A stretch of 50,647 nucleotides of DNA from a virus (Duplodnaviria; Caudoviricetes): positions 1 to 50,647 of IMG/VR virus record IMGVR_UViG_3300050138_000100. One strand, 5' to 3'. How positions within the stretch are numbered: the first letter of the stretch is position 1; every line of letters begins with the position of its first letter. Below are positions 5,474 through 35,483 of the stretch, piece after piece. Under the pieces are notes generated by a model. The model saw only the letters and a list, made by a program, of their open reading frames with translations, was not told the DNA's origin and did not search any database. A program made the position numbers and the translations under genes.

Positions 5474-5525
5474 TGCGCTGTCTCCTTTGACTTCAATCTA
5501 ATTGTATCAAAAAAATAAGCATAAG

Positions 5526-5783
5526 TCAATCATTTATACCTCTGTTGAGGCGCTTCATTGCCTGCAAGTCTTTCGACGCCGCCGTGACGTCTCGAATCTC
5601 TTTGCTGGACATCTTAACGGTGACGCTATCCTCGCCGATCGCCATGCTCTGGTTTATGAAGCCCTGGACAACGTTTTCGAGCAGCGTAATGCGCTTGCCT
5701 TCGTCCTTGAGCACTTCGTTGACGTCTTTGGCGTTCGGCGTCAGCACGACGGCCTTGATTTTGACCGACTTCTTGCTAGCCAT
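5526..5783 (-). CDS. hypothetical protein
   Basis: ORF in operon. Confidence 0.55.
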   Translation of the reverse strand: MASKKSVKIKAVVLTPNAKDVNEVLKDEGKRITLLENVVQGFINQSMAIGEDSVTVKMSSKEIRDVTAASKDLQAMKRLNRGIND

Positions 5784-5908
5784 GCCGCTTGCCGGTCTTC
5801 GCCTTTTTCTGATACATCTGCTTGCGCAGTCGGGTGAACACGTACTTGTTAAAATCGTCGCCGGTCAAGCCCTTTTCGCGGGCCTCGGCTTCCAGCTCGT
5901 CTCGGGTT

Positions 5909-6322
5909 TTACGCTTTGCCTTCAAAATCTATCTCCTCTCGACGGTCCTTATAGCAGAACAGGTGCACGTGGTACAGGCCCATTATACTCCGGCGGCGCT
6001 GCATATTGTCGATCATGCCGTCGTAATTTTGCTCGCCGTACGTCTCCAAAATACGCATTAAATCGAAATACTCGACCGGCAGCATTGCGCCGCGCGTGGC
6101 AAAATCCCGTTTCGGTATCAGCAGATCGTGCTTGCTAAAAACGGCGTCGTACGGATAGCGGTTTCTAATCAAAAGCCACTGCTTAAACTCCTCGACTACC
6201 ATCTCTTTGCGTACGTCGGTCAGCTTATCGTCTTTGGCGGCCTTCTGGTAGGCGCGTTCGGCGGCGGCGCTGCGCAGGCTCATCGGTAGGCGTTCAGCCT
6301 TTGATTTTTTTCGGCTTGTCAT
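5909..6322 (-). CDS. HIT-like nucleotide hydrolase/transferase
   Basis: WLLIRNRYPY...HDLLIPKR...SIMGLYHVHL resembles HIT-fold motifs, with an incomplete histidine triad. Confidence 0.6.
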   Translation of the reverse strand: MTSRKKSKAERLPMSLRSAAAERAYQKAAKDDKLTDVRKEMVVEEFKQWLLIRNRYPYDAVFSKHDLLIPKRDFATRGAMLPVEYFDLMRILETYGEQNYDGMIDNMQRRRSIMGLYHVHLFCYKDRREEIDFEGKA

Positions 6323-7055
6323 GCTCCCCCTTCTCGCGCTGTTCGTAGTAAACGTCCACGATATCCATCATCAGGCTCATTACGCCGGCAATATTTCGTA
6401 TATCTTCGTAACGGCTAATCTTGTGCACGGTCGCGACAAAATGCTTGAAGTCGTCGACGTCGGCCACGTACTTTTTAGCTTCCGGCACGAGCCGGTCGAT
6501 CAGCTGCTCGAAGCGCTCACTGCCGGACTTCATAAACATAATGTAGATCGGCTCAAACTCGAACTCCACGTCTAGGTCGTCGACGTTTATGCTCGGAATA
6601 TCCATCGCCACGTCCAGCTCCGTCAGGCCCGACGCCATGCGCTGATTCACGTCTTCAATACTCTCGTACAGCTTCTTGAGCAGCTCCGGGTTACTAAAGC
6701 CACTTAACGCGTTGTGCGCCAGTTGCTTCGCTGTAATTTCGTCATCACTTAGCTCGCGCTCGATGACAATTACGAATATCTCCATAATGCCAGCTACCCT
6801 AGCGCTGCGGGCCCGATGATGACCCGATATAATCAGGAACTCTGGCGGCTTCCTTGATGTTAACAAGACCAGCGGCAAGCTTTCAAGTGCACCCTCGGCC
6901 TTCATGTTCTGCGCCAGCTGATTAAACTTGTCCTCAGACATCACCTGAGCGTTGACGTCGGCTTCGCGCAGAGAATCAAGATGTACGCGCCAGATAGCCA
7001 TACCTGGAGTTAGTTCCAATAAACGCTCTGGTTCAGGTATGTCCGTTTTACTCAT
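6294..7055 (-). CDS. ParB/Sulfiredoxin N-terminal domain protein
   Basis: NAQVMS...LPLV...FLIISGHHRARSARVAG, a ParB-like GxxR motif. Confidence 0.8.
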   Translation of the reverse strand: MSKTDIPEPERLLELTPGMAIWRVHLDSLREADVNAQVMSEDKFNQLAQNMKAEGALESLPLVLLTSRKPPEFLIISGHHRARSARVAGIMEIFVIVIERELSDDEITAKQLAHNALSGFSNPELLKKLYESIEDVNQRMASGLTELDVAMDIPSINVDDLDVEFEFEPIYIMFMKSGSERFEQLIDRLVPEAKKYVADVDDFKHFVATVHKISRYEDIRNIAGVMSLMMDIVDVYYEQREKGEHDKPKKIKG

Positions 7056-7519
7056 GTCGCTAATGCCTTATTTAACTGATACCATGTGCGCATAGCCTCA
7101 CCCCTGCACTCACGACAGTTGCGTCTACCGTTAGGCGTGACATAAGTATTTTTTTTATCGTAGACGTGACCTTGCGGACAGTGAGTTTTTGAACGATGTT
7201 GAGCGCCTGTTTTTTGGCCGGTCTTGCCACGCTTATTATTTTCCCTATGCGTGACTGGCTCCAAATGAGCAGGGTTTACACAGCGTCGGTGCTGGCAGGT
7301 TTTGCCACCTAAACAACTCTTGTCAGCATTGTGGCAGGTATGGTCGAGCTCCAGGCCGGCCGCGATCGGGCCGACGATTAGCTCGTAGGAAATACGGTGG
7401 GCTTGCAAAGTTCTGCCTTCAAACCAAAATCTACCATATCCACGACTTAGCTTAGCTGTCCATAGCCAACAGCTATCTGTTTTTTTGACCTTAGTCCAGA
7501 ATCGTTTATTTATTAACAT
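7052..7519 (-). CDS. HNH homing endonuclease
   Basis: RFWTKVKKTDSCWLWT...AHRISYE...LDHTC...CVNPAHLEPVTHREN plus C-terminal HCPQGH...CREC. Confidence 0.9.
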   Translation of the reverse strand: MLINKRFWTKVKKTDSCWLWTAKLSRGYGRFWFEGRTLQAHRISYELIVGPIAAGLELDHTCHNADKSCLGGKTCQHRRCVNPAHLEPVTHRENNKRGKTGQKTGAQHRSKTHCPQGHVYDKKNTYVTPNGRRNCRECRGEAMRTWYQLNKALAT

Positions 7520-8942
7520 CTGCCACTAACTCCTTCGGCTTAGCAAACTCGACTTCCTCAGCCAAAAAGCGGCGGACCTGATCGGCGAACGTCTCCTGCC
7601 GGAACTCGGCCTGGTACATGATTTTATACATGCCGTCCTTCATACGCTCGCGCTTCTCGACGGTCAAAATACCATTGTTCAGCTTCACCTTACGATACTT
7701 GCTCAGGCACGTCGTCCGCAAGCCCTTCATGTAATAATAGCGATTCACGCGGCTGGCCTGGTCGTGCACCAAGTCGCCAAACTCCTGGCAGGTGATCGCC
7801 AACATCAGCAGTCGGTTGGCCCGCGCATACTTCTCGAGCGACACGTTAAAGCCGTAATTCTCGAACACGTAGTCCTGCTGCAAGCGGAACATGTGGCTCA
7901 GCATAAACGCGCAGGTCGCAAACACCTTGCCATCGAGCAACATCAAAAAGAAATGCTCGCCGCTGGTTTGACCCAGCTTGTGCGCGAATAAGTCCCGGTA
8001 GTATAGCGCTACGTTGGCTGGGACGGTGACAAAGCTAATCCTGGTATCTTCGGTAATCTCGTCGTCGTCACTGAATAGCGGGGCCTTATATGGCTTGAGC
8101 TCGCGCCGGCCGAACGTGGCGATCTTGTTCAACCCCTTCCAGTCCTTGAGCAGCTCCGGCTTCGTGCAGAGCCAGTAATCTATCTTCTGCACGTTGTACT
8201 GCTTGGCATAAATAACCTGCTCGCTATCAAACCCGGCAACGGACCGGCTGCGATACCACACGAACGGTGCCGGGCTTTTGAGCGTCTGCTCGTACATGTC
8301 GCGGTACTCCTTGCCAAAGCTAAACTCCGGTACGTTCGGGTCAAACTCGATGTCGCTACCGAAGTCAAACATCTTCGTATAGCCGTTACTGAAAACAGGC
8401 GGGTTAACCACAACCAAATCCCCATGTGTATAACGGGCAGTCAAAACTTCGCGCATATCTTGTAGCTCGTACTTGACACCAGCAAAATAAGGCTTCATGG
8501 CCTTGACCTTGCCCTTCAAGATTTCCCGGTGCTTCTCTCCGTTAATCAGCAAATCCTCGAGCTGGGCCTTCATGTAATGCACCTTGCGTATCTGGCATAC
8601 CTTCATCAGCCAGAGCAGATACGCTACGCGCTCGACGTCACTCTGGCAGAGCTGATAATCGTCGAACCACGCGTCACCTACCTTAAACTCGATCTCACGC
8701 ACCTTACGGCCGGCGAAGTAATACCCGAGCAACGTGCTGTACAGCGATATGTCGCTCGTGTAAATATTCTCTTTGGCAAACCCGGCTTCGATCGCGCAGC
8801 GGGCCAGCGTGAACTGACCGACCGCGGGCAAAAATATACGACTGTGGCCCAAGTCATAAAACTGCTTGAGTACAGCCGTCAGATACTTACGCTGATCGGC
8901 GGGGGTATGCCCCAAGAATATGCTCTCGTTTTTACTTACCAT
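7506..8942 (-). CDS. putative DNA-modification protein: adenine-methyltransferase-like N-terminal domain plus a second (possibly GNAT-like) C-terminal domain
   Basis: Motif I-like IFLPAVGQF...TSDIS and motif IV variant VVNPPVF; start moved to ATG 8942 after AGGAGACAACG; next to a ParB-like gene. Confidence 0.6.
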   Translation of the reverse strand: MVSKNESIFLGHTPADQRKYLTAVLKQFYDLGHSRIFLPAVGQFTLARCAIEAGFAKENIYTSDISLYSTLLGYYFAGRKVREIEFKVGDAWFDDYQLCQSDVERVAYLLWLMKVCQIRKVHYMKAQLEDLLINGEKHREILKGKVKAMKPYFAGVKYELQDMREVLTARYTHGDLVVVNPPVFSNGYTKMFDFGSDIEFDPNVPEFSFGKEYRDMYEQTLKSPAPFVWYRSRSVAGFDSEQVIYAKQYNVQKIDYWLCTKPELLKDWKGLNKIATFGRRELKPYKAPLFSDDDEITEDTRISFVTVPANVALYYRDLFAHKLGQTSGEHFFLMLLDGKVFATCAFMLSHMFRLQQDYVFENYGFNVSLEKYARANRLLMLAITCQEFGDLVHDQASRVNRYYYMKGLRTTCLSKYRKVKLNNGILTVEKRERMKDGMYKIMYQAEFRQETFADQVRRFLAEEVEFAKPKELVADVNK

Positions 8943-8956
8943 AAACCGTTGTCTCC

Positions 8957-9032
8957 TGGCTGCGGACAAAGGATTCGAACCTAAGCTTTCTCTGGTTAGA
9001 CCAGAGCGTCCTACCAACTAGACGATTCCGCA
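8957..9032 (-). tRNA. tRNA with CUA anticodon (amber suppressor-like, Gln-type identity elements)
   Basis: 76 nt TGCGGAATCGTCTAGTTGGTAGGACGCTCTGGTCTAACCAGAGAAAGCTTAGGTTCGAATCCTTTGTCCGCAGCCA: D arm GTCT/GGAC, anticodon stem CTCTG/CAGAG, loop GT-CTA-AC, T loop TTCGAAT, encoded CCA; mismatches in the T stem and at 7:66. Confidence 0.8.
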
Positions 9033-9060
9033 ATGTGCGGCGAGGGAACACCGCTGTTAT

Positions 9061-9090
9061 ATTATAGCTCATCTTACTGTGACCTGTCAG
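9061..9090 (-). promoter_or_regulatory. sigma70-like promoter for the tRNA/modification operon
   Basis: CTGACA-18-TATAAT about 30 nt upstream of the tRNA. Confidence 0.55.
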
Positions 9091-9263
9091 CGATCAATAA
9101 CCCGATGATGAACGACAAAACTAGGGCTTTTTTCATACGGCTCCTTTCTGGTTACTAAAATCTCTATGCTCTTACCGAGCTCAATCGGTCGGCTGATCGG
9201 GTGGCGCACCAGTATAGCAAAGCCAAAGCACCACTGTAAAAATCTGTTCTCGAAAACGCCCAT

Positions 9264-9827
9264 TCAGTGCGCCCACTTCGGGTTATGCGGTGGCTTCAAC
9301 GGCTCAACGTCTAACAGCGTAGCCTGTTCGGGTCCGACCGGCTTTGGTGGCTTTGGTGGCTTCGTGTGGACCGGCGGCTTCTCGATTCGTTGATCTGGTT
9401 CGGTCTGCACGATCGACGTCCCGTTCCATAAAATATGCGTCATCGTCATGCGGCGCTTCAAAAACTCCGGCGCTAACATCGACTTCCTGTGACAATCGTC
9501 CGGCTTGCCCTCGCTGCACATTAACGCTATCTGCTCGCCGTTTTGTGCACGCTCGAAAAACTCGTCAATCGTTTCGTCAAAATCGACGTTCCGGCCCAGG
9601 CCGCCCACGTTCTTCCCTCGCAGCTCGTAGCGCATGTCTGCCGCGTCGCAAGCTTCCTGAATGGGGTGAGTATTGAACTGCGGGTGCCAGCGGCTTCCCG
9701 GGCTCGTACGCACGTCGATTAACGTATCAATATTGAATTGTTGCAGCAGCTCGATCAACGCTTCGAGCGGCTTATTGCTATGACCGATTGAAAATATGGT
9801 TGTTTCTGGCACTCGCGCTGTCTCCAT
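9264..9827 (-). CDS. DUF488 family protein
   Basis: IFSIGHSN...LIDVRTSPGSR...PQFN...ALMCSEGKPDDCHR signature; alternative start GTG 9812 after GGAGACAGCG. Confidence 0.85.
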   Translation of the reverse strand: METARVPETTIFSIGHSNKPLEALIELLQQFNIDTLIDVRTSPGSRWHPQFNTHPIQEACDAADMRYELRGKNVGGLGRNVDFDETIDEFFERAQNGEQIALMCSEGKPDDCHRKSMLAPEFLKRRMTMTHILWNGTSIVQTEPDQRIEKPPVHTKPPKPPKPVGPEQATLLDVEPLKPPHNPKWAH

Positions 9828-9840
9828 TTAGTGTAGTTAT

Positions 9841-9869
9841 ATTGTAGCAAAAAAATCACTGTTTTGCAA
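9841..9869 (-). promoter_or_regulatory. sigma70-like promoter
   Basis: TTGCAA-17-TACAAT. Confidence 0.65.
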
Positions 9870-9885
9870 GCTTATTACCCCGGTT

Positions 9886-10095
9886 TCAAGCCTCGACTAA
9901 TACGGATTTATGTTTTTGGTTTTTGTCCGGCTGCCGAGACGCTGCTTTGTGAGAGCCCGGCCCTTTGCCATTTGCGCTAGAATTACTTGTGCTACGCGTC
10001 CGATTGCCATTGTCAGGCTCCTTTAGCTTTTTAGGCTGCTTAACTATTTCGCCTCTCAGTATGAACGTCCTGCGTCCAATAATCAATCCTAACAT
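9886..10095 (-). CDS. small basic hypothetical protein
   Basis: GAGGAGACAGC-ATA-ATG start. Confidence 0.5.
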   Translation of the reverse strand: MLGLIIGRRTFILRGEIVKQPKKLKEPDNGNRTRSTSNSSANGKGPGSHKAASRQPDKNQKHKSVLVEA

Positions 10096-10373
10096 TATGC
10101 TGTCTCCTCTACATTATAGTTATCGCTGACCGTTGCCGGTCGGCTTGTTATTGCACTGCCTACTTTTTTAACCTTTGCCGCGACCTTGCTGATGATCGGC
10201 CACAAACAGGTCGTTATTATTAAAAACGCGCCGACGCCGCCGGTCCAATAGAACGCGGTGTACTGCCCGTGCGACAGCATACCGAACGCTGAGTAAATAG
10301 CGTAAATGCCGGCCAGTAGCACGGCCATCACGAAATACTCCCGGCCGCTGTTTTTGCTTTTGATATTTCCCAC
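10095..10373 (-). CDS. two-TM membrane protein
   Basis: Two hydrophobic helices. Confidence 0.6.
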   Translation of the reverse strand: MGNIKSKNSGREYFVMAVLLAGIYAIYSAFGMLSHGQYTAFYWTGGVGAFLIITTCLWPIISKVAAKVKKVGSAITSRPATVSDNYNVEETA

Positions 10374-10777
10374 GTCGTCTCGTCTCCCAGCTGCTCCTCA
10401 GCCACGAACTTTAGTAACTGCTTGCGCATTGAGCAAAGAATACCATAAGCTTCGGATTCGTAGTAGTCGTCACGCTCGCACGACTGGTACTCCAGGCAGT
10501 CGATCGCGCCGGCTATTTCAGCGATCTTATAGCTCTGATGAGCGCTTTCAATAAACCGGAACTGATATCGCTCGTCACCGTTCGCTTCGTTGTAGCGGTT
10601 GTCGACGCTGCGCACGTTCTCGCGGTGCAAGGCATAGGCCACAGCAGCAGCGTTGTCACGCGTCAAATATATATATTCGTCGTTGACTTTGCACCAAAGT
10701 TTCTGGCTATCGAGCCAGCGGACAAAATAACTGACCAGGACGTTCAGGTGGTCGTCGCTTACCAGATAGGCGCTCAT
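10328..10777 (-). CDS. hypothetical phage protein
   Basis: MSAYLVSDDHL...ENVRSVDNRY...DCLEYQSCE pattern. Confidence 0.7.
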   Translation of the reverse strand: MSAYLVSDDHLNVLVSYFVRWLDSQKLWCKVNDEYIYLTRDNAAAVAYALHRENVRSVDNRYNEANGDERYQFRFIESAHQSYKIAEIAGAIDCLEYQSCERDDYYESEAYGILCSMRKQLLKFVAEEQLGDETTWEISKAKTAAGSIS

Positions 10778-10998
10778 GCGTTATTTACCGTGACCTTTAG
10801 CTTTTTAATCAAGCCTACAACGTCGGCCGTGGCTTGATATTCATCGTACAATTTGGCAATTTCGCCATCGTCACGACTGTTCAACCGGCTAATAGCCTGC
10901 ACCTTGCTCCAATTAGAAGCCTTGTTGGTTTCGTAAATTACGTTCGTTAGCTCGACTACTCTTTTAAGTGTCATCTGCGTGTAGGTTGCTTCGTTCAT
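10774..10998 (-). CDS. hypothetical protein
   Basis: GGAGACAACG-AA-ATG start. Confidence 0.65.
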   Translation of the reverse strand: MNEATYTQMTLKRVVELTNVIYETNKASNWSKVQAISRLNSRDDGEIAKLYDEYQATADVVGLIKKLKVTVNNA

Positions 10999-11032
10999 TT
11001 CGTTGTCTCCATTGTTCTTATGTTTATGTAAT

Positions 11033-11088
11033 TATCATAGCAGCTACACAGTTTTGTGTCAAGTAGATTATCAGGGGTCTGTGGACAA
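11033..11088 (-). promoter_or_regulatory. strong sigma70 promoter with upstream GACCCCTGAT motif and DnaA-box-like TTGTCCACA
   Basis: TTGACA-17-TATGAT; TTGTCCACA at 11080-11088. Confidence 0.75.
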
Positions 11089-11089
11089 T

Positions 11090-11719
11090 TCACGTGCCGT
11101 AATACTTAATCCACTCCAGCGTCACGAAAAGCCGTTCGCAGCGGACCCGTAACCAGTCGCGAATCATCATCAGATCGGCAACCCGAATCGGCACTATGAC
11201 CTTCGCGTAGCCCATAATTTTCTTGTAGTCGTGGTCCCAAAACTCAATCAGGTACACAGCCTTGTCGACCCGAATCCCGTGCGCGTACATCTGGTATGCG
11301 TACACCAGGTGCTGCTTACTCGCCCGGTAATGCTTGACGGTAGTCTCGTAGTCAGATATCGACGTTTTGTAGTCCACGATCGTAGCCTCGGGCTTGCTGA
11401 AAACGTCCGGCCGGCTGTGCAGCACCACGCCTTCGAATATTTCGGTCGCAAACTCGCGCTCGATGTACGTTGCCGGCACTTGGTACTCGCAGGGAAACTC
11501 CTTAAACACCTCTGGCGTGACGCCTGTGTTTTCAGCTTCTTCCTGCCACATCTCGTGCCGCATTGTCCCGAAGTTCATGGGGCCGCCGGTCGGCCGGTAG
11601 CGCTCGGTGATACCTAAATATTCGAGCGCTACCTTATCGACTGAGCCAGGCGTACAGCGGGTCAGGTCCGTATATCTGGTGTGAACCTTGCCGTCATTCT
11701 CCTTCTTGTAATCGGCCAT
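11090..11719 (-). CDS. PD-(D/E)xK exonuclease (RecB/Cas4-like)
   Basis: GTMRHE...E...SRPD...IVDYKT...QHLVYAY motifs; adjacent to a recombinase. Confidence 0.8.
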   Translation of the reverse strand: MADYKKENDGKVHTRYTDLTRCTPGSVDKVALEYLGITERYRPTGGPMNFGTMRHEMWQEEAENTGVTPEVFKEFPCEYQVPATYIEREFATEIFEGVVLHSRPDVFSKPEATIVDYKTSISDYETTVKHYRASKQHLVYAYQMYAHGIRVDKAVYLIEFWDHDYKKIMGYAKVIVPIRVADLMMIRDWLRVRCERLFVTLEWIKYYGT

Positions 11720-12488
11720 CGTCGTCTAAACTTTCACGCGTCAGCGCTTCGTTCTTGGCTTCCAGCTTCGTGCCGGCGCGGGCCCGGGCAGCCAGGGCGG
11801 CCTGGATATCGTTCTTGGTGTGCTCGGTAACAGTCTCGCCGTCAATAAACTTGCGGGCGTCCATCTCCTCACGCACGTACACGCCGCTCACTGAAAATGC
11901 CCGACGCAATGCGTGCGCTTCGGCGACTTTGGCGATCATCGTCTTCGGCTTGCTCCACCACAGCGGCTTCTTCGACTTTTCGGTTTCAGGCGGCTGGTAT
12001 TCCTTGAACGCTACCTCTGAGTACACAGCCCTCGGAAACGACTTATTCCAAACCTTCGCCCAGCCGTACGTCTCCCACTCGCCATCTTCGGGGTCTGACT
12101 TTTTAATCGTTCCGCTCTCGATACCACCGAACATGCCTGATCGGTGTGCAACGCCAAGCAACCCGTCGCGTGTCGTGATATACACAACCGTCCGCTTATC
12201 GGGGTCGTCCTTGCTGTACACGACTGGCACGAGCTCGCCCACTACCGGGTCGAGACCAAACTTGCGGGCCCGGTATAAAAATACCGCGAACTCGTCGTCC
12301 GTCAGCCCTTTGGCGATCTGCTTGCGCATGAGCTGTTTCTGCGTCTCGCTGAACTCGGGAGCGTTTAGCCACCCCTTCGTCGTTCTTTTCTCTCGGCGGA
12401 TTAAGGCTTTGCGCTGCTTGTCACTCTGCTCTGGCAGTGTGCCGGCGGCGCTATTGGCCTCGTCCTCTTGTGCTTCGTCTTCTGACAT
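11694..12488 (-). CDS. bet: Bet/RecT-family single-strand annealing recombinase
   Basis: TDDEFAVFL...GLDP...RDG...AHRSG...W..KPKTMIAKVAEAHALRRAF..SGVY..EEM; start ATG 12488 after AAGGAG. Confidence 0.85.
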   Translation of the reverse strand: MSEDEAQEDEANSAAGTLPEQSDKQRKALIRREKRTTKGWLNAPEFSETQKQLMRKQIAKGLTDDEFAVFLYRARKFGLDPVVGELVPVVYSKDDPDKRTVVYITTRDGLLGVAHRSGMFGGIESGTIKKSDPEDGEWETYGWAKVWNKSFPRAVYSEVAFKEYQPPETEKSKKPLWWSKPKTMIAKVAEAHALRRAFSVSGVYVREEMDARKFIDGETVTEHTKNDIQAALAARARAGTKLEAKNEALTRESLDDDGRLQEGE

Positions 12489-12505
12489 AGCACTCCTTTC
12501 GATTA

Positions 12506-12703
12506 TGATCAAAAACTAAACCAGCACACGTCGGAGCGGAAGGGCTCACTTGACGTTCGGCTCACTCGGGGTTTACGAGAATGTGGGGTTCCTTGCGGAA
12601 ACCTTACCAATCCTTAACGCCCATGCCGGCCTAGTCACTGATCGCTTGTTAAAGTACCTGCTGCTAAGCAGGCTACCGGCGAGCATGTTTGCCTACTCGC
12701 CAG
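12506..12703 (-). ncRNA. candidate structured RNA in the bet leader
   Basis: Two hairpins, a boxA-like GTACTTTAACAA, then a 13-bp stem enclosing three hairpins, one with a GCAA tetraloop. Confidence 0.5.
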
Positions 12704-12711
12704 AAGTCTAC

Positions 12712-12966
12712 CTATAACTGCAACTCTCCGCCGTTCCAGCCGTCACCCTCTATGTTGACAGCGCCGCAGCCATCGCACACGTCGGCCGGGCGGACAGAAT
12801 CAAGCCAGTCCATCTCGCCGTTGCGGTCCAGGCCGACGCCGCCAAAATCAATATCCTCGTTGTGCGTGCTGGCGTGGTTGCAGTCGATTAGCGTGCCGTC
12901 TTCGTAGGTCCTGACGATGACGCCTTCGTCGTACGTGAATTGCTGTTTTACTTCGATTGTTTTCAT
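12712..12966 (-). CDS. acidic, possibly Zn-binding hypothetical protein
   Basis: CNH...CDGC; GGAGACAACG start. Confidence 0.65.
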   Translation of the reverse strand: MKTIEVKQQFTYDEGVIVRTYEDGTLIDCNHASTHNEDIDFGGVGLDRNGEMDWLDSVRPADVCDGCGAVNIEGDGWNGGELQL

Positions 12967-12995
12967 AGCGTTGTCTCCATTAATACTATAGTCTT

Positions 12996-13024
12996 ATAGT
13001 ATCAAGCGTACCCCTGTTTGTCAA
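12996..13024 (-). promoter_or_regulatory. sigma70 promoter with CAGGGGTAC in the spacer
   Basis: TTGACA-17-TACTAT. Confidence 0.7.
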
Positions 13025-13254
13025 GGGGATTTTGGTTTATTTGGGCTACCGGCCCGGCTGCTCAATCGCCCGCCTTTTGCACCGGCAATTTTAGCCAACT
13101 CGCGGTTAACTGCGAATCCGTGCGGCCGGCGGTTCTCGCGGGCCTCGGGCGACCATGCTTTTTGCCCTAGCTTCACGTAAAAATCAGCCCCGTAAGTATC
13201 TTTGATTTCCTGCGCGGCCAATAATCCGCCTTCTCTACTTCCTGCCATTGTCAA
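13021..13254 (-). CDS. KGG-repeat stress-induced-like protein
   Basis: MAGSREGG...DFYVKLGQK...GFAVNRELAKIAGAKGGRLSSR. Confidence 0.75.
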   Translation of the reverse strand: MTMAGSREGGLLAAQEIKDTYGADFYVKLGQKAWSPEARENRRPHGFAVNRELAKIAGAKGGRLSSRAGSPNKPKSP

Positions 13255-13553
13255 TCTCCTTCGGTTATTTTAATTTCGCCCTTAGCCTTTTCAATGTCGG
13301 CGGCCGCGCCGACGGGGTCGAACTTGTACTGGTCCTTCTCGGCAATCTTGCCCTCGCTGACCAGTCGGTGGTATTCGCCGATCATAAACTTCAACCCGCC
13401 GCCTAGTTCGGCCGTCGTGCCTATGACGTCTTCCGTCGGCATACCGAGCGTCTTGAAATGCGTCGCGATGATCGCCAGAAAATCCGACATGTAGTACCTA
13501 AGCTCCTCGATATTCTCCGGGCGGCCCGCTGGGTTTGCCTGCTTGTCTGCCAT
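13251..13553 (-). CDS. hypothetical protein
   Basis: AAGGAGAC RBS, ATG 13553. Confidence 0.6.
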   Translation of the reverse strand: MADKQANPAGRPENIEELRYYMSDFLAIIATHFKTLGMPTEDVIGTTAELGGGLKFMIGEYHRLVSEGKIAEKDQYKFDPVGAAADIEKAKGEIKITEGD

Positions 13554-13753
13554 TAAAACAGTCTCCTTTGCCCGCGTATCTGTTCGAGATACACGCACTT
13601 AAACTTTTTACTTCGACGCATAATTTCATACCTAGCAATCACGGCGACACTGTGGTCGCTGAACGTAACCAGGCGGACCTGTTCTTCGTCAAGCAGCACT
13701 TCCGGCAGTATCGAGCCTTCGATTTCTACCTTCGTCCACTTACGCTTGCTCAT
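13553..13753 (-). CDS. hypothetical protein
   Basis: TAATG-coupled ORF. Confidence 0.55.
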   Translation of the reverse strand: MSKRKWTKVEIEGSILPEVLLDEEQVRLVTFSDHSVAVIARYEIMRRSKKFKCVYLEQIRGQRRLF

Positions 13754-14169
13754 TAGCGCCTGGTTACTTTGCGCCAGACCTGATCAAATGCGTCTTCGAC
13801 TACGTCCCAAAACTTGTCGACCCGGGTTTTGCCGGTCAGCCTGCCTTCCGCAACCCTGTCCCTGGCTCCTTCGGCTTCCATATAGCTAGGCCTGGCGGCG
13901 TCGAGCTTGGTGTCGTGAGTATTCACAAACCTAGCGACGTGGTCGTCGAGCTTGGCTATCATCGCCTCGCTGTTAGCTAGGCGTGTGTGTACGGAGCCGC
14001 CGATGGCGTACACTCGGTACTTGTTCGTGATAGGCCCGTACTTTAACTGATTAGGCTTACCTAACCTGTTAAACCAGGTTAGCGTTTTGTGATATGCGTC
14101 TTGCAGCTCTGACGCGACGACCGGGCGGCTGAACCCGCCGTTGCTCATTGCAAACTTGTACTTTGCCAT
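13753..14169 (-). CDS. hypothetical protein
   Basis: Promoter TTGCAT-17-TACAAT and GGAGACAACG-CT-ATG. Confidence 0.7.
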   Translation of the reverse strand: MAKYKFAMSNGGFSRPVVASELQDAYHKTLTWFNRLGKPNQLKYGPITNKYRVYAIGGSVHTRLANSEAMIAKLDDHVARFVNTHDTKLDAARPSYMEAEGARDRVAEGRLTGKTRVDKFWDVVEDAFDQVWRKVTRR

Positions 14170-14239
14170 AGCGTTGTCTCCGTTTACTGTTAGTGCTTAT
14201 ATTGTAGCTTAAACGGTAACGGTATGCAAATTATAAACG

Positions 14240-14302
14240 GCCGATCGTTTCGCCTCTGGAGACAACGACTTAAAAAGAGGTTGAAAGGCAGCCACGATCG
14301 GC
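14240..14302 (-). ncRNA. hairpin RNA candidate displaying the complement of the GGAGACAACG start motif in its loop
   Basis: Outer stem GCCGATCGT/ACGATCGGC, inner stem CCTCT/AGAGG, 18-nt loop (minus strand TTTTAAGTCGTTGTCTCC). Confidence 0.6.
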
Positions 14303-14303
14303 A

Positions 14304-14852
14304 CTATCCTATTTTACCATTAAGCTCCGACTTATTAACCAACCAGAGTAGTATTCTCGTCAGCTCGTCCGACTTATCTTCACGCATATCGGTAATTGTC
14401 CTATACCAGGACCCGCCGAAAACCAGCTCGAACAGCGCCGGCTGCCAGCGGCCTTTATCGGCGTGTACTACCGGCACGTGCACCGCGTCGCATAGGCAAA
14501 TCAGATTCCACTGCTCGTTGCACTCATGCTCGGACAGGTAAATGATATGGTGGGCGTGCCGGCGGATTCCACAGACGTGCGGGACCACGCCTACTAACTG
14601 GCAGACGTAATTTACGCGCTGTTTGCACTCAAGCTTGGCTGCGGTTCGCTCGGCTGGCTCGGCCGGTTTGCGATGAAGTCGCGGATTAGCGGTTCGCGGT
14701 TTCGCATGGGCTGCGTACCTTTTGGTTGCAGCGCCTTTGCGAGCGCAAGCAGGAGAGCAATAGCGATCGGTTGACCGATACGGCCGAAATTCATTCGGGC
14801 ACTCCCTACATTTTTTTAATTTAACTTGCGGTGTCTCCATAAATGTTTTCAC
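14304..14852 (-). CDS. HNH endonuclease with N-terminal Cys cluster (NinG-like architecture)
   Basis: CRECP...YCSPAC; CQL...HAHHIIY...NEQWNLICLCDAVH. Confidence 0.75.
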   Translation of the reverse strand: MKTFMETPQVKLKKCRECPNEFRPYRSTDRYCSPACARKGAATKRYAAHAKPRTANPRLHRKPAEPAERTAAKLECKQRVNYVCQLVGVVPHVCGIRRHAHHIIYLSEHECNEQWNLICLCDAVHVPVVHADKGRWQPALFELVFGGSWYRTITDMREDKSDELTRILLWLVNKSELNGKIG

Positions 14853-14897
14853 CTATCTGAACATTAGCATATTACAAACTCCGGTACAATGTGATTT

Positions 14898-15107
14898 TTA
14901 TTCGGCGGGTTCAATCGGCACAAGCTCAACCATCGTATCGAGCAAACTGTCGATAATCGCCATCGACTTCTCGGCGCCATGCTGGTCGGCGATATCCTTC
15001 GCTGCTATCCAAGTCCAGCGTTCAGCTTCAATCGCGTTAATAATTACTTCGCGGCCGTCGTCAACCTCAACCATTTTGTATGCTCTCCGGCAGCTCCACG
15101 CCTTCAC
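14898..15107 (-). CDS. hypothetical protein
   Basis: ORF in operon; start uncertain. Confidence 0.5.
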   Translation of the reverse strand: MKAWSCRRAYKMVEVDDGREVIINAIEAERWTWIAAKDIADQHGAEKSMAIIDSLLDTMVELVPIEPAE

Positions 15108-15258
15108 CGACGTGATAAGCCGGAGTGCTCCACTCGCTGCTGACTATCGTGCAACCGAACTCGCCGAGCTTCTGCACGTGTTCCGGCTCCGCCTGGCGGC
15201 GCATGGCTTCTTCGGCTTCCTGCTCCTTTAACTCTTTAGCACGATTGTAGGGTTTCAT
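15067..15258 (-). CDS. hypothetical protein
   Basis: ORF in operon. Confidence 0.5.
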   Translation of the reverse strand: MKPYNRAKELKEQEAEEAMRRQAEPEHVQKLGEFGCTIVSSEWSTPAYHVGEGVELPESIQNG

Positions 15259-15530
15259 ACAACCATTTTATCACGGCGGCACAATCCCGCCTTTCCCCTG
15301 CTAGGCTTTGGTGAAGTTGAAAACTATTATCTGTAGCGTTTGAGCGACTTAACCCGATTTAGCTTCCCCAACCATACGGCCGTCTCGTGGTGTCGTTGCG
15401 TGTGCTCTGCAGATGGCCCGGGTGACGTAGCAGGCGGTCGTAGTATCAGAGCCGGGACTAAAGCACAGCACGCGATCATTACGTCTTTGTTGTCAGGAGA
15501 TCGTACAACTCCTTTTTGCTACCGATATAT

Positions 15531-15619
15531 TTGCAAAAGTAAACAAGCCGTGATAAACTGAAAGCTCAGTCACGTTTCGTAATTTAAGAACTTCGCGTCA
15601 ACGAGGTTCTTTTTCTTTT
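15531..15619 (+). ncRNA. candidate ~55-nt antisense RNA (interval includes its promoter and terminator)
   Basis: Plus-strand TTGCAA-17-TAAACT (15531-15559); terminator stem AAGAACTTCG/CGAGGTTCTT followed by T-rich run. Confidence 0.55.
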
Positions 15620-15691
15620 ACGCCTGTTATAAAACAGTCACGTTCCATAATCAGGTCATTCAATATTAGCACAAGCTGCCCCAGCGGCAAG

Positions 15692-16171
15692 TTAGATTAC
15701 GTTGTTCTGGTTATACTTCGCGTACTGGGCCTGCGTGTCGAGCTGCTTTTCGATCAGCGTGGCCTGCTTACGGACGCTGGTAAACATGTCGTCAAAATAT
15801 CCCCATATCACCTTCGCGGCTTCGTGATCTGCCCTGGCTTGAATTAACGCCATCTCTGCCTCGATAACTTCCTTCTGTTCGAGCACCCAGGCTTTGCGGT
15901 CGGCGTCGCTTGATAACTCCAACACTTCTTTTTTAGCGACCGCGATCATCTGCTGCTTCGCCATTACCCGTTTCAGATCGAACTCGGCCTGCTGCAACTT
16001 GCTACGGCTGCTATGCACGAGTTTTGACGCCTCTACTTTCTGTCGAGGTAATCTCGTTAGTTGAAACGTGATTTGCGCCTGAGACAGGCCCTGCGTAGCT
16101 TTAACGACCTGTTTGATCGTGCTTATACTGCTCTGAATATCCAGCGGCTTGTTGCGCTTCTTGTCTGCCAT
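15692..16171 (-). CDS. coiled-coil hypothetical protein
   Basis: GGAGACAACG-CA-ATG start; helical heptads. Confidence 0.7.
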   Translation of the reverse strand: MADKKRNKPLDIQSSISTIKQVVKATQGLSQAQITFQLTRLPRQKVEASKLVHSSRSKLQQAEFDLKRVMAKQQMIAVAKKEVLELSSDADRKAWVLEQKEVIEAEMALIQARADHEAAKVIWGYFDDMFTSVRKQATLIEKQLDTQAQYAKYNQNNVI

Positions 16172-16192
16172 TGCGTTGTCTCCTTGAGCTGG

Positions 16193-16498
16193 CTAGGCTT
16201 TTTGCTGCTGCACTATAGCAGCGACTTCGGCGTCAGTCTTCAACACGTCCATCGGGTAGGACCGGTTGCTGCCATCGTAGCCGATAACAGTCGCTTCTGC
16301 GCTGTCGGCTGAAACAGCAATGACTTCCGAGCGCCGGTAGCCGCTTTCGCTCTCCGCGTGCTTATAACTCGCGTAGTCGCCAACCTTGAACTTGGCGCTG
16401 CCAGCCTGATTGCTCGGTTCGTCGTTCTTGCCTTCGTCCGAGTAATTTGCGCCAGTACCTGGCTTCGGGTCTTTGTTGTCTTGGCTATCGTCGCGCAT
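16193..16498 (-). CDS. hypothetical protein, possible SH3-like beta domain
   Basis: GGAGACGAC RBS; KFKVGDYASY...EVIAV. Confidence 0.6.
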   Translation of the reverse strand: MRDDSQDNKDPKPGTGANYSDEGKNDEPSNQAGSAKFKVGDYASYKHAESESGYRRSEVIAVSADSAEATVIGYDGSNRSYPMDVLKTDAEVAAIVQQQKA

Positions 16499-16533
16499 AA
16501 TGTCGTCTCCTTGCTTAATCAATAACTCTTAGC

Positions 16534-17127
16534 TTACACTACTCGCTTCTTCTGAACAATCCGCGTGCCAGGCACGGCAATGCCGGGCTTCTTGTTATCG
16601 CCGGACTTGATACCGAGCACGTCGGTCCGCAGCTTGCCGTGGTCGATCGTCCAATACTTGCGCGGGATTTTGGTTTCGTCGGCTACCACAACGTCGGTAA
16701 ACGTCGTAATCGACACGCCCGGCTCGCTGGTCGTCAACGTATCGAGCTTCTCCATCATCTCCAGCGCTTTGTCCGGCGTGATCTCGGCGTTCTCCAGCTT
16801 TTGCTGAATCTCCTCGATCTTTGCCGCGTTCTTGCCTTCGTACTGATTCACGAACTCTGTCAGCTGCTTCTGGATAGTGCTTTTGGCTGAGCCTAGCTCC
16901 TGTTCCAGCGGCTTAAACATGCCCGTGAAGGTTTTGAGGGCTTCGTTCATAGGCTTGGTTACGGCCTCTTTCTTGGCCTTGACCTGCTTCTCGAAATGCT
17001 TGGCGTGCGCGAAGATTTTCAGCCCTTCGTGAAACGCGGCCGGCGTCCCGATTTTTTTCGGGACCACAATCTCTTTCGACTGCGTCTCGAGCTCGACCAA
17101 TTCTTGCTTAACTTTGTCTCCTGCCAT
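16534..17127 (-). CDS. Gp157/Gam-like coiled-coil phage protein
   Basis: C-terminal VVVADETKIPRKYWTID...VPGTRIV; GGAGACAACG-CT-ATG at 17127. Confidence 0.55.
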   Translation of the reverse strand: MAGDKVKQELVELETQSKEIVVPKKIGTPAAFHEGLKIFAHAKHFEKQVKAKKEAVTKPMNEALKTFTGMFKPLEQELGSAKSTIQKQLTEFVNQYEGKNAAKIEEIQQKLENAEITPDKALEMMEKLDTLTTSEPGVSITTFTDVVVADETKIPRKYWTIDHGKLRTDVLGIKSGDNKKPGIAVPGTRIVQKKRVV

Positions 17128-17184
17128 AGCGTTGTCTCCTTGTTTAACTTCTTTCATTATAGCACACGCGTCCCTGTTAATCAA

Positions 17185-17370
17185 TTACTGATATTTGTCG
17201 ACCAGCTCCCTAACAATTTTTGCGAGCGCTTCGATCTTGGCTTCTAAAATACCGTGTAACTCGCCTAGCGTTTTGCCGTCAAACTCTTTGCCGTCAAACT
17301 CTTTTGCGTCAGTTTTACAGTCCTCTATTATCAGATCTAGCACCCTGAGCGTATCAGTTTTACTCGCCAT
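17185..17370 (-). CDS. hypothetical protein
   Basis: ORF with GAGG RBS. Confidence 0.55.
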   Translation of the reverse strand: MASKTDTLRVLDLIIEDCKTDAKEFDGKEFDGKTLGELHGILEAKIEALAKIVRELVDKYQ

Positions 17371-17502
17371 CTTTAACCTCTACCAATTCCCAGCCCGGTC
17401 CGTAACCTGACGTATTGCCTTGCTCGATCAAGTCAGCGATTCGTCGCAAACAGTCAGGCCAGTCTACGATCGGGCCTTCGTCTAAAATGCTAATGCTGTA
17501 GC

Positions 17503-17838: not shown

Positions 17839-17992
17839 ACCAGCTCGCTTTCATGATTAACACCCTGCCTGTATAATTCGTCCACCAACCAGCCAGCAGA
17901 AGCGCGATCAGCGCCGCTACCTACCAGTTCGTCTTCACTGTTAAAGACTAGCCACTCACCTCTGTCCTCTTGTAGTCTGTAGCCTTTGTAAT

Positions 17993-18175: not shown

Positions 18176-18214
18176 GTCGTTGTCTCCTTTGATACTGCTT
18201 ATGTTTATACTTAT

Positions 18215-18243: not shown

Positions 18244-18248
18244 GGGTT

Positions 18249-21913: not shown

Positions 21914-21930
21914 TGAACCTTCATTATACG

Positions 21931-22554: not shown

Positions 22555-22566
22555 GCTGCTCTCCGA

Positions 22567-23237: not shown

Positions 23238-23285
23238 TCCTCTCGTTATTAAATATACATTTTTTGCTGCCTTATGGCAACTTCC

Positions 23286-33498: not shown

Positions 33499-33500
33499 CG

Positions 33501-34085
33501 CTAGTAGCCTCGGCGCGACGGGAACCTGGTTATATCACGGCGCTGGTAGCGGCGGTTCAGGTAGCCGGTATTCTTACGACTGCGTATGCGCACCTGGCCG
33601 CCCGGGAATGGGCCGTCCGGCTCGTCGCCCATTGCCTCGTACTGCTTTACTAGGGCTTGCAGGTTAGCGAACACCTGTGACTTCTTGACCTGCGTCTGGC
33701 CTTGCACGTAATCATAAAACCTAGCCGACCCGGCCAGCAACTCGTACAAACACTCCAGCACAGCCGGAATAAAGCCGCCGGCGTCGATCAGCGCGCTTAT
33801 TTCGTCGTCAGTATAGGCGCTGTACTGATAGCTTATTTTCAGTAAGTCGTCGCTCGTTATGGAAACGGAATCATCAATAATAATTATGCCGGACGGCGCG
33901 TTGACGGTGTAATCGGTGTTAAGCGTCAGCTGAGTGCCATTCTTATCGACCTCTATTGCTGTGATATTGCTGTACTTCAAATCATATAGGCTGTTGGCGC
34001 TGTCGCCCTGGACCTGCTCGACGTTCGGGCGAAGCGCGTCGCCAATGCGTCGCCGTAGCTTGTCGATCTCTGCCTGTATTGCCAT
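33501..34085 (-). CDS. head-tail adaptor with inserted beta domain
   Basis: IDKLRRRIGD...YTDDEISALID; insert NGTQLTLNTDYTVNAPSGIII. Confidence 0.65.
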   Translation of the reverse strand: MAIQAEIDKLRRRIGDALRPNVEQVQGDSANSLYDLKYSNITAIEVDKNGTQLTLNTDYTVNAPSGIIIIDDSVSITSDDLLKISYQYSAYTDDEISALIDAGGFIPAVLECLYELLAGSARFYDYVQGQTQVKKSQVFANLQALVKQYEAMGDEPDGPFPGGQVRIRSRKNTGYLNRRYQRRDITRFPSRRGY

Positions 34086-34214
34086 CTAATTGCTCCCTGC
34101 GACAACGGCCGCGATAACAGCGGCAGCAGCCTTAGCGTTCGGCTTTTTAACCACTGGCACGGACGGGCGGGCCGGCGTGATCGTCGCAACGCGTGATTGC
34201 TGTCGTACGTTCAT
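34086..34214 (-). CDS. 42-aa ORF whose TAG is followed directly by the next ATG, in frame
   Basis: GAGG RBS; MNVRQQSRVATITPARPSVPVVKKPNAKAAAVIAAVVAGSN*. Confidence 0.5.
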   Translation of the reverse strand: MNVRQQSRVATITPARPSVPVVKKPNAKAAAAVIAAVVAGSN

Positions 34215-34226
34215 GCCCTCATTGTA

Positions 34227-35330
34227 TCACTGCGGGTAGTGCTTTGCGATAGCATTTGCGAACTGCTCGGCTACGTGCTGGTAACTGAACGCCTTATGCG
34301 CCCACCGGCTGCGCTCTTTAGCCAATGATCGCCGGTACTCGCGATGGTCATAGGCGAAACGCATGCAGCGCTTCAAATCTTCGTAATCGCTCTCAACCCA
34401 GTTACCGACAGGCCCCCATTTAGGCGGGTACTTCAAGGCTTTCGACTTGCCGGCCGACTTGACGGTCAGGCTAAACCTGTGTCTCGGGTCCATCAGCTCG
34501 CGCATGCCCGTATTGTCGGCCATTATGCAGTCCATACCAGTCGCCATCGCTTCGAGCGGCGGCATACCAAAGCCTTCGCCCCGGCTCGGGAACACGAAAC
34601 AATCGCTGTTAGCCATCAGCTCGTACATCTGTGCCTCGCTGTACGGCGCGTCGATAATCCTAATGTCGCCCAACTCCTTAGCAAATTCTAAATTGCCATG
34701 CGTACCGGACTGCGTTTTGACGATCAGCGTCACGTCGTCCTGGCCCTTAAACTCGTCCATGAAAGCCGATATCACGGCGCCGCTATTTTTGCGCAGCGTC
34801 AGCGTCCCCATAATCATAAACGTGAACTTCTTACGCTCCTTGCGCTCGATGTACGGGAAAGCCTTCGGGTGGACGCCGTTGTGCATGACTTCGATCGGCA
34901 CTGTCACGCCGTTTTCGCGGAACATCTCGACGCAGAATTGGCTCGGCGTCAACAGCAGATCGAGCTGGCTGTTTATTGACTTGGCAGCCGTCGGGTACTT
35001 GCCGGTCCAGTCGCTATAGCCTTTAGGCATGGTGTCGGTCTCAAACATCGTAAAGCCGACGCGATATGGATAACTCTGAATCAAGTGAAAGTCGCCCGGG
35101 AAGGCATGGCAGACGCCTATGTCTGCGTGTCCCTGCGGCTTGCTGAGCAGCGCCTGGCCCTCTTTACTGACGTTACCTAGCGGAATGTACTGCTGGACGT
35201 TAAACGGCACTACGTACAGCTCAAACTCGGGCAGGCGGTCGATCGCCAGTGCCGTCTGTTCGCTGCTGCCGCTGTAACCCTGGCCGCCGCTGAATGTTCC
35301 GTGCCATGCGATCTCTATAGGCTGTTTCAC
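34227..35330 (-). CDS. GT-B (GT4-like) glycosyltransferase
   Basis: SDCFVFPSRGEGFGMPPLEAMATG (EX7E), RKN, HNGV; GTG start after GGAGACAAC. Confidence 0.9.
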   Translation of the reverse strand: MKQPIEIAWHGTFSGGQGYSGSSEQTALAIDRLPEFELYVVPFNVQQYIPLGNVSKEGQALLSKPQGHADIGVCHAFPGDFHLIQSYPYRVGFTMFETDTMPKGYSDWTGKYPTAAKSINSQLDLLLTPSQFCVEMFRENGVTVPIEVMHNGVHPKAFPYIERKERKKFTFMIMGTLTLRKNSGAVISAFMDEFKGQDDVTLIVKTQSGTHGNLEFAKELGDIRIIDAPYSEAQMYELMANSDCFVFPSRGEGFGMPPLEAMATGMDCIMADNTGMRELMDPRHRFSLTVKSAGKSKALKYPPKWGPVGNWVESDYEDLKRCMRFAYDHREYRRSLAKERSRWAHKAFSYQHVAEQFANAIAKHYPQ

Positions 35331-35483
35331 GTTGTCTCCGTTCATTTCCTTGATTATATCATAAGTTGCTGCTGGCTAGGCAGCTGGGGGTCGGTTCCCC
35401 GTGACAGCGACATCAGCTGTTGGCTGTCATACACCGTGCCTATGTCACTATAGCAAATGCTCTATGTAACTTCTATGTCAACT

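Follow-up and report, generated by a model that had tools for sequence, protein, structure and literature searches.

What reads the decanucleotide that stands in front of many early genes in the phage genome of IMG/VR record IMGVR_UViG_3300050138_000100? The window analyzed here is the entire phage record, 50,647 bases long, and is labeled G000 in comparisons. An earlier note had described in it a start-associated sequence (SAS) next to the start codons of a set of genes and had suggested that the motif is the target of a small RNA or an RNA-binding protein, or else a handle for recombination. We call this element, GGAGACAACG on the gene strand (CGTTGTCTCC in plus-strand form), the tag. As judged from sequence comparison, the tag is real and specific and comes with a conserved complementary element, putatively an RNA. 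Our preferred reading, held with moderate confidence, is that a small antisense RNA encoded by the phage binds the tag, which would hide the ribosome sites of first cistrons.

Genes were taken from our own rough list of 91 open reading frames (ORFs), which is the basis for the ORF counts below and in which the minus strand carries all genes. In gene order, small genes are followed by the genes for the large terminase subunit (TerL) and the portal and by head and tail genes, including a 963–amino acid (aa) tape measure; after the tail genes come a block of small early and DNA-metabolism genes, from ~21000 down to 5000, and then an end of lower GC content. Exact motif search found the tag 11 times, in 10 gene-strand copies and 1 reversed copy, against 0.09 expected, and none of 100 shuffled sequences reached 11. 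With 10 copies versus 4 for the next unrelated 10-mers, the tag is the most repeated 10-mer in the genome. All ten exact positions listed in the earlier note were recovered, and the reversed copy, at 14258–14267, is absent from that list. Five variant tags (GGAGACAGCG at three sites, GGAGACAGCA and GGAGACGACA at one each) stand at further starts, beginning at 5476, 9816, 10098, 20370, and 16501, again as previously placed. The 15 tagged starts are the following.

35330–35339, minus strand: exact tag; its last G doubles as the initial G of the GTG that opens the glycosyltransferase gene (34227–35330); a TATAAT box was seen by eye, outside the promoter scan.
20712–20721, minus strand: exact tag, 4 nt before the ATG of a 71-aa ORF (20492–20707); promoter at 20772–20745.
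19985–19994, minus strand: exact tag, 2 nt before the ATG of a 45-aa ORF (19845–19982); promoter at 20035–20007.
18178–18187, minus strand: exact tag, 2 nt before the ATG of a 60-aa ORF (17993–18175); promoter at 18243–18215; complementarity to the candidate small RNA extends over 12 nt.
17130–17139, minus strand: exact tag, 2 nt before the ATG of a 197-aa ORF (16534–17127) with a weak exonuclease-like PHROG match; promoter at 17184–17156.
16174–16183, minus strand: exact tag, 2 nt before the ATG of a 159-aa ORF (15692–16171), between an in-frame TAG and the ATG; no promoter called.
14172–14181, minus strand: exact tag, 2 nt before the ATG of a 138-aa ORF (13753–14169), the next gene after the candidate small RNA; promoter at 14230–14201.
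12969–12978, minus strand: exact tag, 2 nt before the ATG of an 84-aa ORF (12712–12966); promoter at 13024–12996.
11001–11010, minus strand: exact tag, 2 nt before the ATG of a 74-aa ORF (10774–10998); promoter at 11062–11034.
8947–8956, minus strand: exact tag, right after the CCA of a tRNA and 4 nt before the ATG of a 478-aa DNA-modification-type protein (7506–8942).
20370–20379, minus strand: variant GGAGACAGCG (A to G at position 8, giving a G-U pair with the candidate small RNA), abutting the ATG of a 113-aa ORF.
16501–16510, minus strand: variant GGAGACGACA (A to G at position 7, which keeps a G-U pair; last position mismatched), 2 nt before the ATG of a 101-aa ORF.
10098–10107, minus strand: variant GGAGACAGCA, 2 nt before the ATG of a 69-aa ORF.
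9816–9825, minus strand: variant GGAGACAGCG, 3 nt before the GTG of a 182-aa DUF488 protein; promoter at 9869–9841.
5476–5485, minus strand: variant GGAGACAGCG, 2 nt before the ATG of a 132-aa ORF; promoter at 5529–5501.

The distance from the end of the tag to the start codon is 2 nt at ten sites, 4 nt at two, and 3, 0, and −1 nt at one each (n = 15), the last being the one-base overlap with the GTG at 35330; the range of 0 to 4 nt proposed before thus holds apart from this overlap. Every one of the 15 starts opens an ORF of at least 40 codons. A promoter scan of positions 4000 to 23900 called 32 sigma70-like sites versus 15.9 expected, and such a site ends 12 to 27 nt upstream of 7 of the 9 exact tags in the scanned range and of 2 of the 5 variants, in keeping with the earlier claim that most tags lie behind a sigma70-type promoter. 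Since the distance of the tag to the promoter is variable and its distance to the start is fixed, the tag belongs to the translation start and not to the promoter. A tag or variant is present on 14 of 37 ORFs of the early block versus 1 of 54 others (Fisher P = 6 × 10−6). The sole tagged gene outside the early block is the glycosyltransferase gene, which had also been singled out before as the only tagged gene of the late region.

The reversed copy lies in the 134-nt gap between an HNH gene and the gene at 13753–14169, the chance of finding a given 10-mer in a 200-nt stretch being ~2 × 10−4. Its surroundings contain the following features.

14258–14267, minus strand: anti-tag CGUUGUCUCC, the exact complement of the tag in gene-strand RNA and the sole reversed copy in the genome.
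14228–14304, minus strand: candidate small RNA of ~75 to 80 nt, with inferred ends; predicted fold of −27.1 kcal/mol, z score of −4.4.
14311–14338, minus strand: promoter-like site of the candidate small RNA, TTAATA, 16 nt, and TAAAAT preceded by TG.
14304–14840, minus strand: HNH/zinc-ribbon gene with weak NinG and HNH matches, directly 5′ of the candidate small RNA.

The −10 box ends 8 nt before a predicted closing helix of 9 pairs (14240–14302); the anti-tag is enclosed by this helix, and a U-rich stretch comes after the helix. The mean unpaired probability of the anti-tag is 0.60. Seed pairing with the tags would involve 10 to 12 contiguous pairs at 10 sites and 9 to 10 pairs, with G-U, at 5 more, and the predicted duplex energies for the phage’s own tag and RNA run from −15.9 kcal/mol (10 bp) to −20.5 kcal/mol (12 bp, site 18187). 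Among the seven substitutions at the five variant sites, two affect the last position; the other five are internal, and each replaces A by G across from a U of the RNA, which leaves a G-U pair in place. This tolerance of G-U pairs, together with the tight link to start codons, points to selection at the RNA level.

TerL homologues led to 20 IMG/VR loci, and ten whole records (G001 to G010) were compared. Four of them, G001, G003, G004, and G005, bear a tag of their own; their TerL proteins are 50 to 58% identical to that of the phage, and 19 to 24 of the 91 ORFs are shared. The exact 10-mer is absent from all five relatives searched (G001 to G005), and when one mismatch was allowed, G001 gave no match and G002 to G005 gave few, no more than the backwards control. 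The most repeated gene-strand 10-mer in the four tag-bearing relatives is instead AAGGAGGCGA or AGGAGGCGAA. The 8-mer GGAGGCGA occurs 16, 12, 16, and 10 times on the gene strand of G001, G003, G004, and G005, respectively, and 2, 1, 3, and 1 times on the other strand; nearly all gene-strand copies are located just before an ATG, mostly behind TTGACA/TATAAT promoters with an A-rich leader. Both tags, that of this phage and that of the relatives, fit GGAG[G/A]C[G/A]AA. Homologues of the tagged genes themselves are mostly lacking in the relatives, which fits portable cassettes.

A counterpart of the anti-tag was found in all four of these relatives, in each case as one complement of the genome’s own tag, placed in an intergenic gap and inside a hairpin. 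The hairpin is positionally orthologous: in all five genomes, it lies directly 3′ of the homologue of the HNH gene at 14304–14840 (38 to 47% identity, E values of 10−31 to 10−36). Other reversed 8-mers in the relatives fall in ORFs (two in G004, one within TerL) or, for the second one in G001, in a tRNA-like stretch with T-arm-like sequence at which neither ARAGORN nor Rfam made a call. A metagenome scan with the HNH-gene protein added four fragments: L177 and L179, which are like G003; L178, which is like G004; and L180, a new variant. The hairpin is present in all four, the 2.7-kb L179 carrying the same one as L177, and a tag is present in L177, L178, and L180, the three fragments in which it was checked. 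The tags of this phage and of the relatives differ at position 5 (A/G), 7 (A/G), 9 (C/A), and 10 (G/U). Each of these four differences is matched at the partner position in the hairpin segment, and all pairs are kept. In L180, the anti-tag has U instead of C at its end, and the partner base in the tag is not fixed (t, g, t, g, and a in five sites).

In the records with more distant TerL proteins (G002 and G006 to G010), no dominant start tag, HNH homologue, or anti-tag was found; G002, G006, and G008 are 56 to 65% complete, and G007, G009, and G010 share 2 to 3 ORFs with this phage. G002 (L150 to L152; 57% complete) has a weaker start word, AAGGAATCAGC, before five to six genes, with no reversed copy in the available part. 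A pattern scan for GGAGACAACGNNATGG over viral contigs gave 117 single unrelated matches, no contig occurring twice among the 80 matches listed, and a pattern scan for the relatives’ anti-tag gave GC-rich noise only among the matches listed. The HNH gene itself has a one-mismatch tag, GGAGACACCG, at 14829–14840, overlapping its ATG. A tag at the start of the HNH gene was considered as a shared feature and dropped: tag-like bases precede or overlap this start in G005 and L180, and not in G001, G003, and G004.

One property of the genome bears on position 5 of the tag. The word GGAGG is strongly depleted, with 3 occurrences observed versus 28 expected on the gene strand and 1 versus 4 on the other strand; in the four related phage genomes, it is not depleted. 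After GGAG near start codons, the next base is G in 1 of 70 cases here versus 23 to 36 of 54 to 86 in the relatives. If the DNA avoids GGAGG/CCTCC, perhaps owing to a restriction or defense specificity, tag and anti-tag would have had to change jointly at position 5.

Co-variation could also arise if the tag were read as DNA, because a DNA-binding protein would likewise make all sites, the reversed one included, change together. Such a site might be a double-stranded 10-mer bound by a regulator, for instance a roadblock repressor of early operons, or the recombination handle that the earlier note had allowed for. We consider this very improbable: the motif is not palindromic, 10 of its 11 exact copies share one orientation and have a fixed distance to the start and a variable one to the promoter, the tolerated variants keep G-U pairs, and the reversed copy is embedded in an RNA-type stem-loop with promoter- and terminator-like signals.

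The tag is made up of a 4-nt Shine-Dalgarno (SD) core, GGAG, and six more conserved bases, and how much of it serves ribosome binding depends on the host. The one pointer to a host is a TerL 53% identical to the phage protein (locus L321; G011 contig 3, 112056–133474), on a 370-kb contig that also bears a partial 16S gene and belongs to a Candidatus Saccharimonadales metagenome-assembled genome. None of the other phage ORFs has a match at this locus, from which the HNH gene is absent, and alignment of the HNH protein against genome contigs gave no match. Because only TerL matches, the link to a Saccharimonadales host is weak. Of ten 16S 3′ ends from this order, seven, from seven Saccharimonadales genomes (L327 to L333), read GGATTACCTCCTTT; two, both from one mixed genome with eight 16S matches (L326 and L339), read GGATCACCTCCT..; and one had no recognizable tail. 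The tag pairs with these tails only via GGAG and a flanking A (approximately −8 kcal/mol; the 16S of the true host may differ). Conservation beyond the need of SD pairing, as proposed before, is thus seen with the tails examined. In 41 genomes of the candidate order, the 10-mer has 41 matches versus 68 for the backwards control and at most 3 per genome (the share of one genome, G044, is 0 matches and 2 control matches); in this weakly supported host order, the motif thus gave no sign of being simply the host’s ordinary extended SD, a finding that the earlier note would have taken as fatal to its proposal had it been made. By these comparisons, the tag is not a plain extended SD.

The relatives’ tag behaves differently toward the same tails. 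In the form GGAGGCGAA, it is largely complementary to them (−15 to −16 kcal/mol). The word AGGAGGCGAA has 53 matches versus 38 for the control in the candidate order (50 versus 37 without G044), with a maximum of 8 per ~1-Mb candidate-host genome versus 7 to 14 per ~50-kb related phage. This closeness to the 16S-tail complement is what one would expect if the tag were a plain strong ribosome-site cassette, that is, a preferred SD and spacer that spread with promoter-leader modules and were homogenized by recombination, the reversed copy being a relic or due to chance. Long promoter-leader repeats do exist (two nearly identical 70-nt promoter-leader units in G004), and this phage encodes a RecT-family protein. 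We nevertheless hold the cassette explanation to be improbable. Only GGAG of this phage’s tag has a partner in the tails, the 10-mer is not enriched in the candidate host order, and the sequence between the −10 box and the tag differs among sites, whereas the tag itself is exact; moreover, chance does not account for a complement that is syntenic, structured, and co-varying.

Single-sequence folds of seven hairpins predict one architecture, with energies of −16.3 to −27.1 kcal/mol and z scores of −1.6 to −4.7. A closing helix of ~7 to 11 pairs is predicted in all seven and differs in sequence in six; the seventh, L178, differs from G004 in the 3′ strand of the helix, which pairs more fully. 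The helix holds one or two small inner hairpins, and the anti-tag is always located just 5′ of the helix 3′ strand. In five hairpins, the mean unpaired probability of the anti-tag is 0.58 to 0.76 versus 0.34 to 0.45 for the rest of the RNA. By eye, a −10 box with TG lies 5 to 8 nt before the helix in every case, and the scan calls the box here (14338–14311) and in G004. Immediately downstream of the hairpin, the scan places a terminator in G001, G003, and G004; in G005, the hairpin is followed by five U’s and is outside the loop limit of the scan. The predicted duplex of G001’s own pair reaches −22.9 kcal/mol; that of this phage’s tag with the G001 seed reaches −6.6 kcal/mol. At the gathering score, Rfam has no family at the hairpin loci. 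Duplex scans (−13 kcal/mol; unlimited G-U) returned hundreds of places matching the G/U-rich seed, and backwards controls did likewise.

The tag positions, their complementarity to and co-variation with the hairpin, its synteny and predicted fold, and the promoter- and terminator-like signals are all computed; from them we infer that the RNA is made, that it pairs with the tags in the cell, and that the effect is repression, with a shut-off on passing from the early to the late phase. In such a scheme, an RNA of ~75 to 80 nt would have a promoter of its own, of the extended −10 type, immediately downstream of the HNH gene, and its targets would be the first cistrons of most early sigma70-type transcripts, on which the tag stands. 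A long helix would close a large loop in this RNA, and the exact tag complement would be exposed on the 3′ side of the loop, most of which is predicted to be unpaired. Once 10 to 12 bp had formed with an mRNA, its ribosome-binding site would be masked along with the bases between that site and the start codon. The 30S subunit would be kept off, and translation of all tagged cistrons would drop in concert. Overlaps of 1 to 4 nt with the upstream neighbor are common among downstream ORFs, so that their translation would probably fall with that of the first cistron. The early promoters are near-consensus and the promoter of the candidate RNA is an extended −10 with a poor −35, which makes a slower build-up of the RNA, and hence a delayed shut-off, plausible. 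The further step, that one RNA with an exposed segment resembling the 16S tail is the master switch of the whole early set, bound to its targets as a co-evolving lock and key, is more doubtful, and we advance it tentatively. The anti-tag of the relatives, GGAUUCGCCUCC (AUGGAUUUCGCCUCCUU in G003), does resemble the 16S tail with one base replaced by two or three, but since any RNA complementary to an SD-containing tag must resemble that tail, the likeness is a lead only.

A protein could take the place of the RNA as reader. Bacteriophage T4 offers the precedent: in excerpts from a review (PMC3014915), RegA is described as a translational repressor acting on about 30 initiation regions, and RegB together with S1 as cutting GGAG and a conserved A-rich stretch in early mRNAs, with the RegB consensus GGAGRAYARAA. 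As far as these excerpts go, the likeness lies in one factor that addresses many early initiation regions through a motif composed of GGAG and bases 3′ of it, bringing about a posttranscriptional early shut-off, and the difference in the nature of the reader, which is a protein there and would be an RNA here. As T4 demonstrates, a protein can recognize a long motif located 3′ of GGAG in the initiation region of an early gene, and a novel reader of this kind, from phage or host, that binds or cuts the tag could hide among the early ORFs, most of which are without a known family in Pfam and PHROG scans. The reversed copy would then be unrelated. Yet no match to RegA or RegB was found in Pfam at E ≤ 0.001 (78 ORFs) or in PHROGs at E ≤ 10−5 (91 ORFs), the tag does not fit the RegB consensus, and a protein reader gives no reason for a co-varying complement in a conserved hairpin. 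Of the two kinds of reader named in the earlier note, the small RNA has thus gained computational support in the form of a conserved, syntenic, co-varying hairpin, and a protein now appears unlikely.

The SAS of Cluster K mycobacteriophages, described by Pope et al. in 2011 (PMC3203893), is the known system to which the earlier note had likened the tag. SAS has been cataloged in hundreds of mycobacteriophages since 2011 without a reader being known; in passages from 2024 (PMC11373665) and 2025 (PMC12699233), its role is still called unknown. The resemblance extends to the quoted defining features compared here, though not to the sequence itself. Both elements are asymmetric short repeats present in 10 to 19 copies, a few bases from starts in a nonstructural region. 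They combine an SD core with conserved bases that have no 16S partner, and they are attached to unrelated genes. About half of the copies stand behind promoter-bearing upstream elements; in Cluster K, these are extended start-associated sequences (ESAS), which consist of imperfect inverted repeats of 17 bp (PMC3203893). The tag differs in being 10 nt long versus a 13-nt consensus, from which it departs by more than two mismatches, and in belonging to another host and phage lineage. On this comparison, the tag is an analogue of the Cluster K SAS, not a member by sequence or descent.

The same paper, in the part consulted, reports for four K1 phages a single reversed SAS copy that is not at a gene start (PMC3203893). 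In phage Anaya, this copy (L343, 34871–34883) is found in the 10-nt loop of a GCGCGG/CCGCGC hairpin with a fold z score of −4.0. The hairpin lies in an unannotated 385-nt gap (L343, 34683–35067; ~59682–60066 of the record), a gap with conserved counterparts in 182 Mycobacterium phage records. All seven Cluster K phages sampled retain the hairpin, and its loop is the SAS complement in Anaya, QuincyRose, Niklas, and LilPharaoh. The reversed copy described here is syntenic, structured, and co-varying, whereas the Cluster K loop matches SAS in only four of the seven phages sampled. The parallel is suggestive and appears to hold for K1 only.

Several observations weigh against the antisense reading. 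The relatives are few, and they offer one clear co-variation event, between two lineages, in addition to the L180 case. One and the same substitution is found at four of the five variant sites, so there are few independent events among the variants, and these four are perhaps copies of one. Part of the conservation of the tag in the relatives could, by its fit to the 16S tails, be ribosomal. In the minimum-energy fold of the candidate RNA, the GUUG of the anti-tag is paired, the promoter/terminator scan calls no terminator after the hairpin in this phage, and there is no RNA run among the runs that hold this phage’s DNA. RNAalifold found 0 consensus pairs on a MAFFT alignment of the seven hairpins because the variable loops misalign, so that the comparison of helices rests on the single-sequence folds. 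In Cluster K, the hairpins of Amgine, Phrank, and Unicorn have a different, C/U-rich loop, Pixie has no reversed SAS at up to two mismatches, and the only reversed SAS of ZoeJ is the ordinary SAS of a leftward gene; these phages indicate that a start tag can be maintained even where a perfect antisense partner is lacking.

A last point of this kind is that the hairpin lies just upstream of one tagged gene in every genome, which makes a purely local role possible. The anti-tag, carried on transcripts reading through from the HNH gene, might act only in cis by folding onto the ribosome site of the next gene as a clamp, the other tags being kept for other reasons. The spacing is suitable, as the hairpin is located 76 to 150 nt upstream of a promoter-plus-tag unit in all five genomes, and the missing canonical terminator in this phage would let such transcripts through. 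In three of the five genomes, however, the region separating the hairpin from the next gene contains a called terminator, and a −10 box belonging to the hairpin is present in every genome. A cis clamp would also leave the shared bases of 10 to 16 other genes, and their joint change with the hairpin, unexplained. We therefore rate it as rather improbable and retain the antisense RNA acting on many tagged starts as the preferred reading.

Antisense RNAs that cover ribosome-binding sites are familiar from other phages in the form of the P1/P7 c4 RNA, the P22 sar RNA, and the lambda OOP RNA, which are not known to act on more than one or two targets. The candidate described here shares with RNAs of this type a short structured form, an exposed SD-complementary segment, and an expected block of 30S binding; it differs in that it would address 10 to 16 genes via a co-evolving ribosome-site tag. 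We found no description of such a putative pair in the literature searched on the motif, on SAS, or on phage small RNAs at SD sites of early genes. If the preferred reading is true, a single RNA would set the timing of an entire class of phage genes, a task for which T4 uses proteins such as RegA and RegB, and the tag/RNA pairs of this phage and of G001, which are predicted not to cross-react, would be naturally orthogonal RNA/ribosome-site pairs. If the more doubtful master-switch reading is also true, start-associated sequences would be addresses for antisense RNAs, the hairpin-loop SAS copy of the Anaya type would be the same device, and tag/RNA pairs would be ready-made orthogonal translation switches. 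A start tag with a concrete, co-varying candidate RNA partner also makes the SAS puzzle experimentally addressable.

Source runs with near-identical DNA are peat metagenomes only. In the annotated phage collection, megablast found no close relative, and the best tblastn match to TerL is 28% identical. Besides RecT and HNH nucleases, the early block encodes a ParB-like protein and a DAM-like/GNAT-like protein; the latter is the 478-aa product of 7506–8942, with the Pfam matches DAM-like-phage1 and GNAT-phage-like, and a related-locus search with it as the sole query gave no match. The last 4 kb in gene order (positions 1 to 4000) have a GC content of 41 to 43% versus 49 to 56% elsewhere, and their ORFs have no family matches and no tag on any of them. 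Mapping of reads from four peat runs to the genome recovered only one near-identical strain along with short pieces, none of which had informative variants in the tag or RNA. The near-identical strain (X2), from another peat run, shows 10 single-letter differences in 16 kb and lacks 1470 bases at 6674–8145, with 15 letters that fit both sides of the joint; the missing stretch covers an HNH gene at 7052–7519 and the adjoining ends of its neighbor genes.

The tag at 8947–8956 adjoins a tRNA gene with its own promoter.

8957–9032, minus strand: tRNA with anticodon CUA (amber suppressor type; ARAGORN label Pyl), whose 3′ CCA end abuts the tag.

TAG is the stop codon of 16 of the 91 ORFs, and at three TAG junctions the next ORF is in the same frame: ~40059/39995 (212 + 128 aa), 23286/23231 (293 + 72 aa), and 16193/16171 (101 + 159 aa). 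Read-through at these junctions would fuse the neighboring ORFs, and the one at 16193/16171 crosses the tag at 16174–16183. The most avoided words in the genome, GATGC, GACTC, ATCGAT, GATCC, CTGAAG, and TGGCCA, include both asymmetric and palindromic ones, and this avoidance perhaps reflects evasion of restriction or defense sites.

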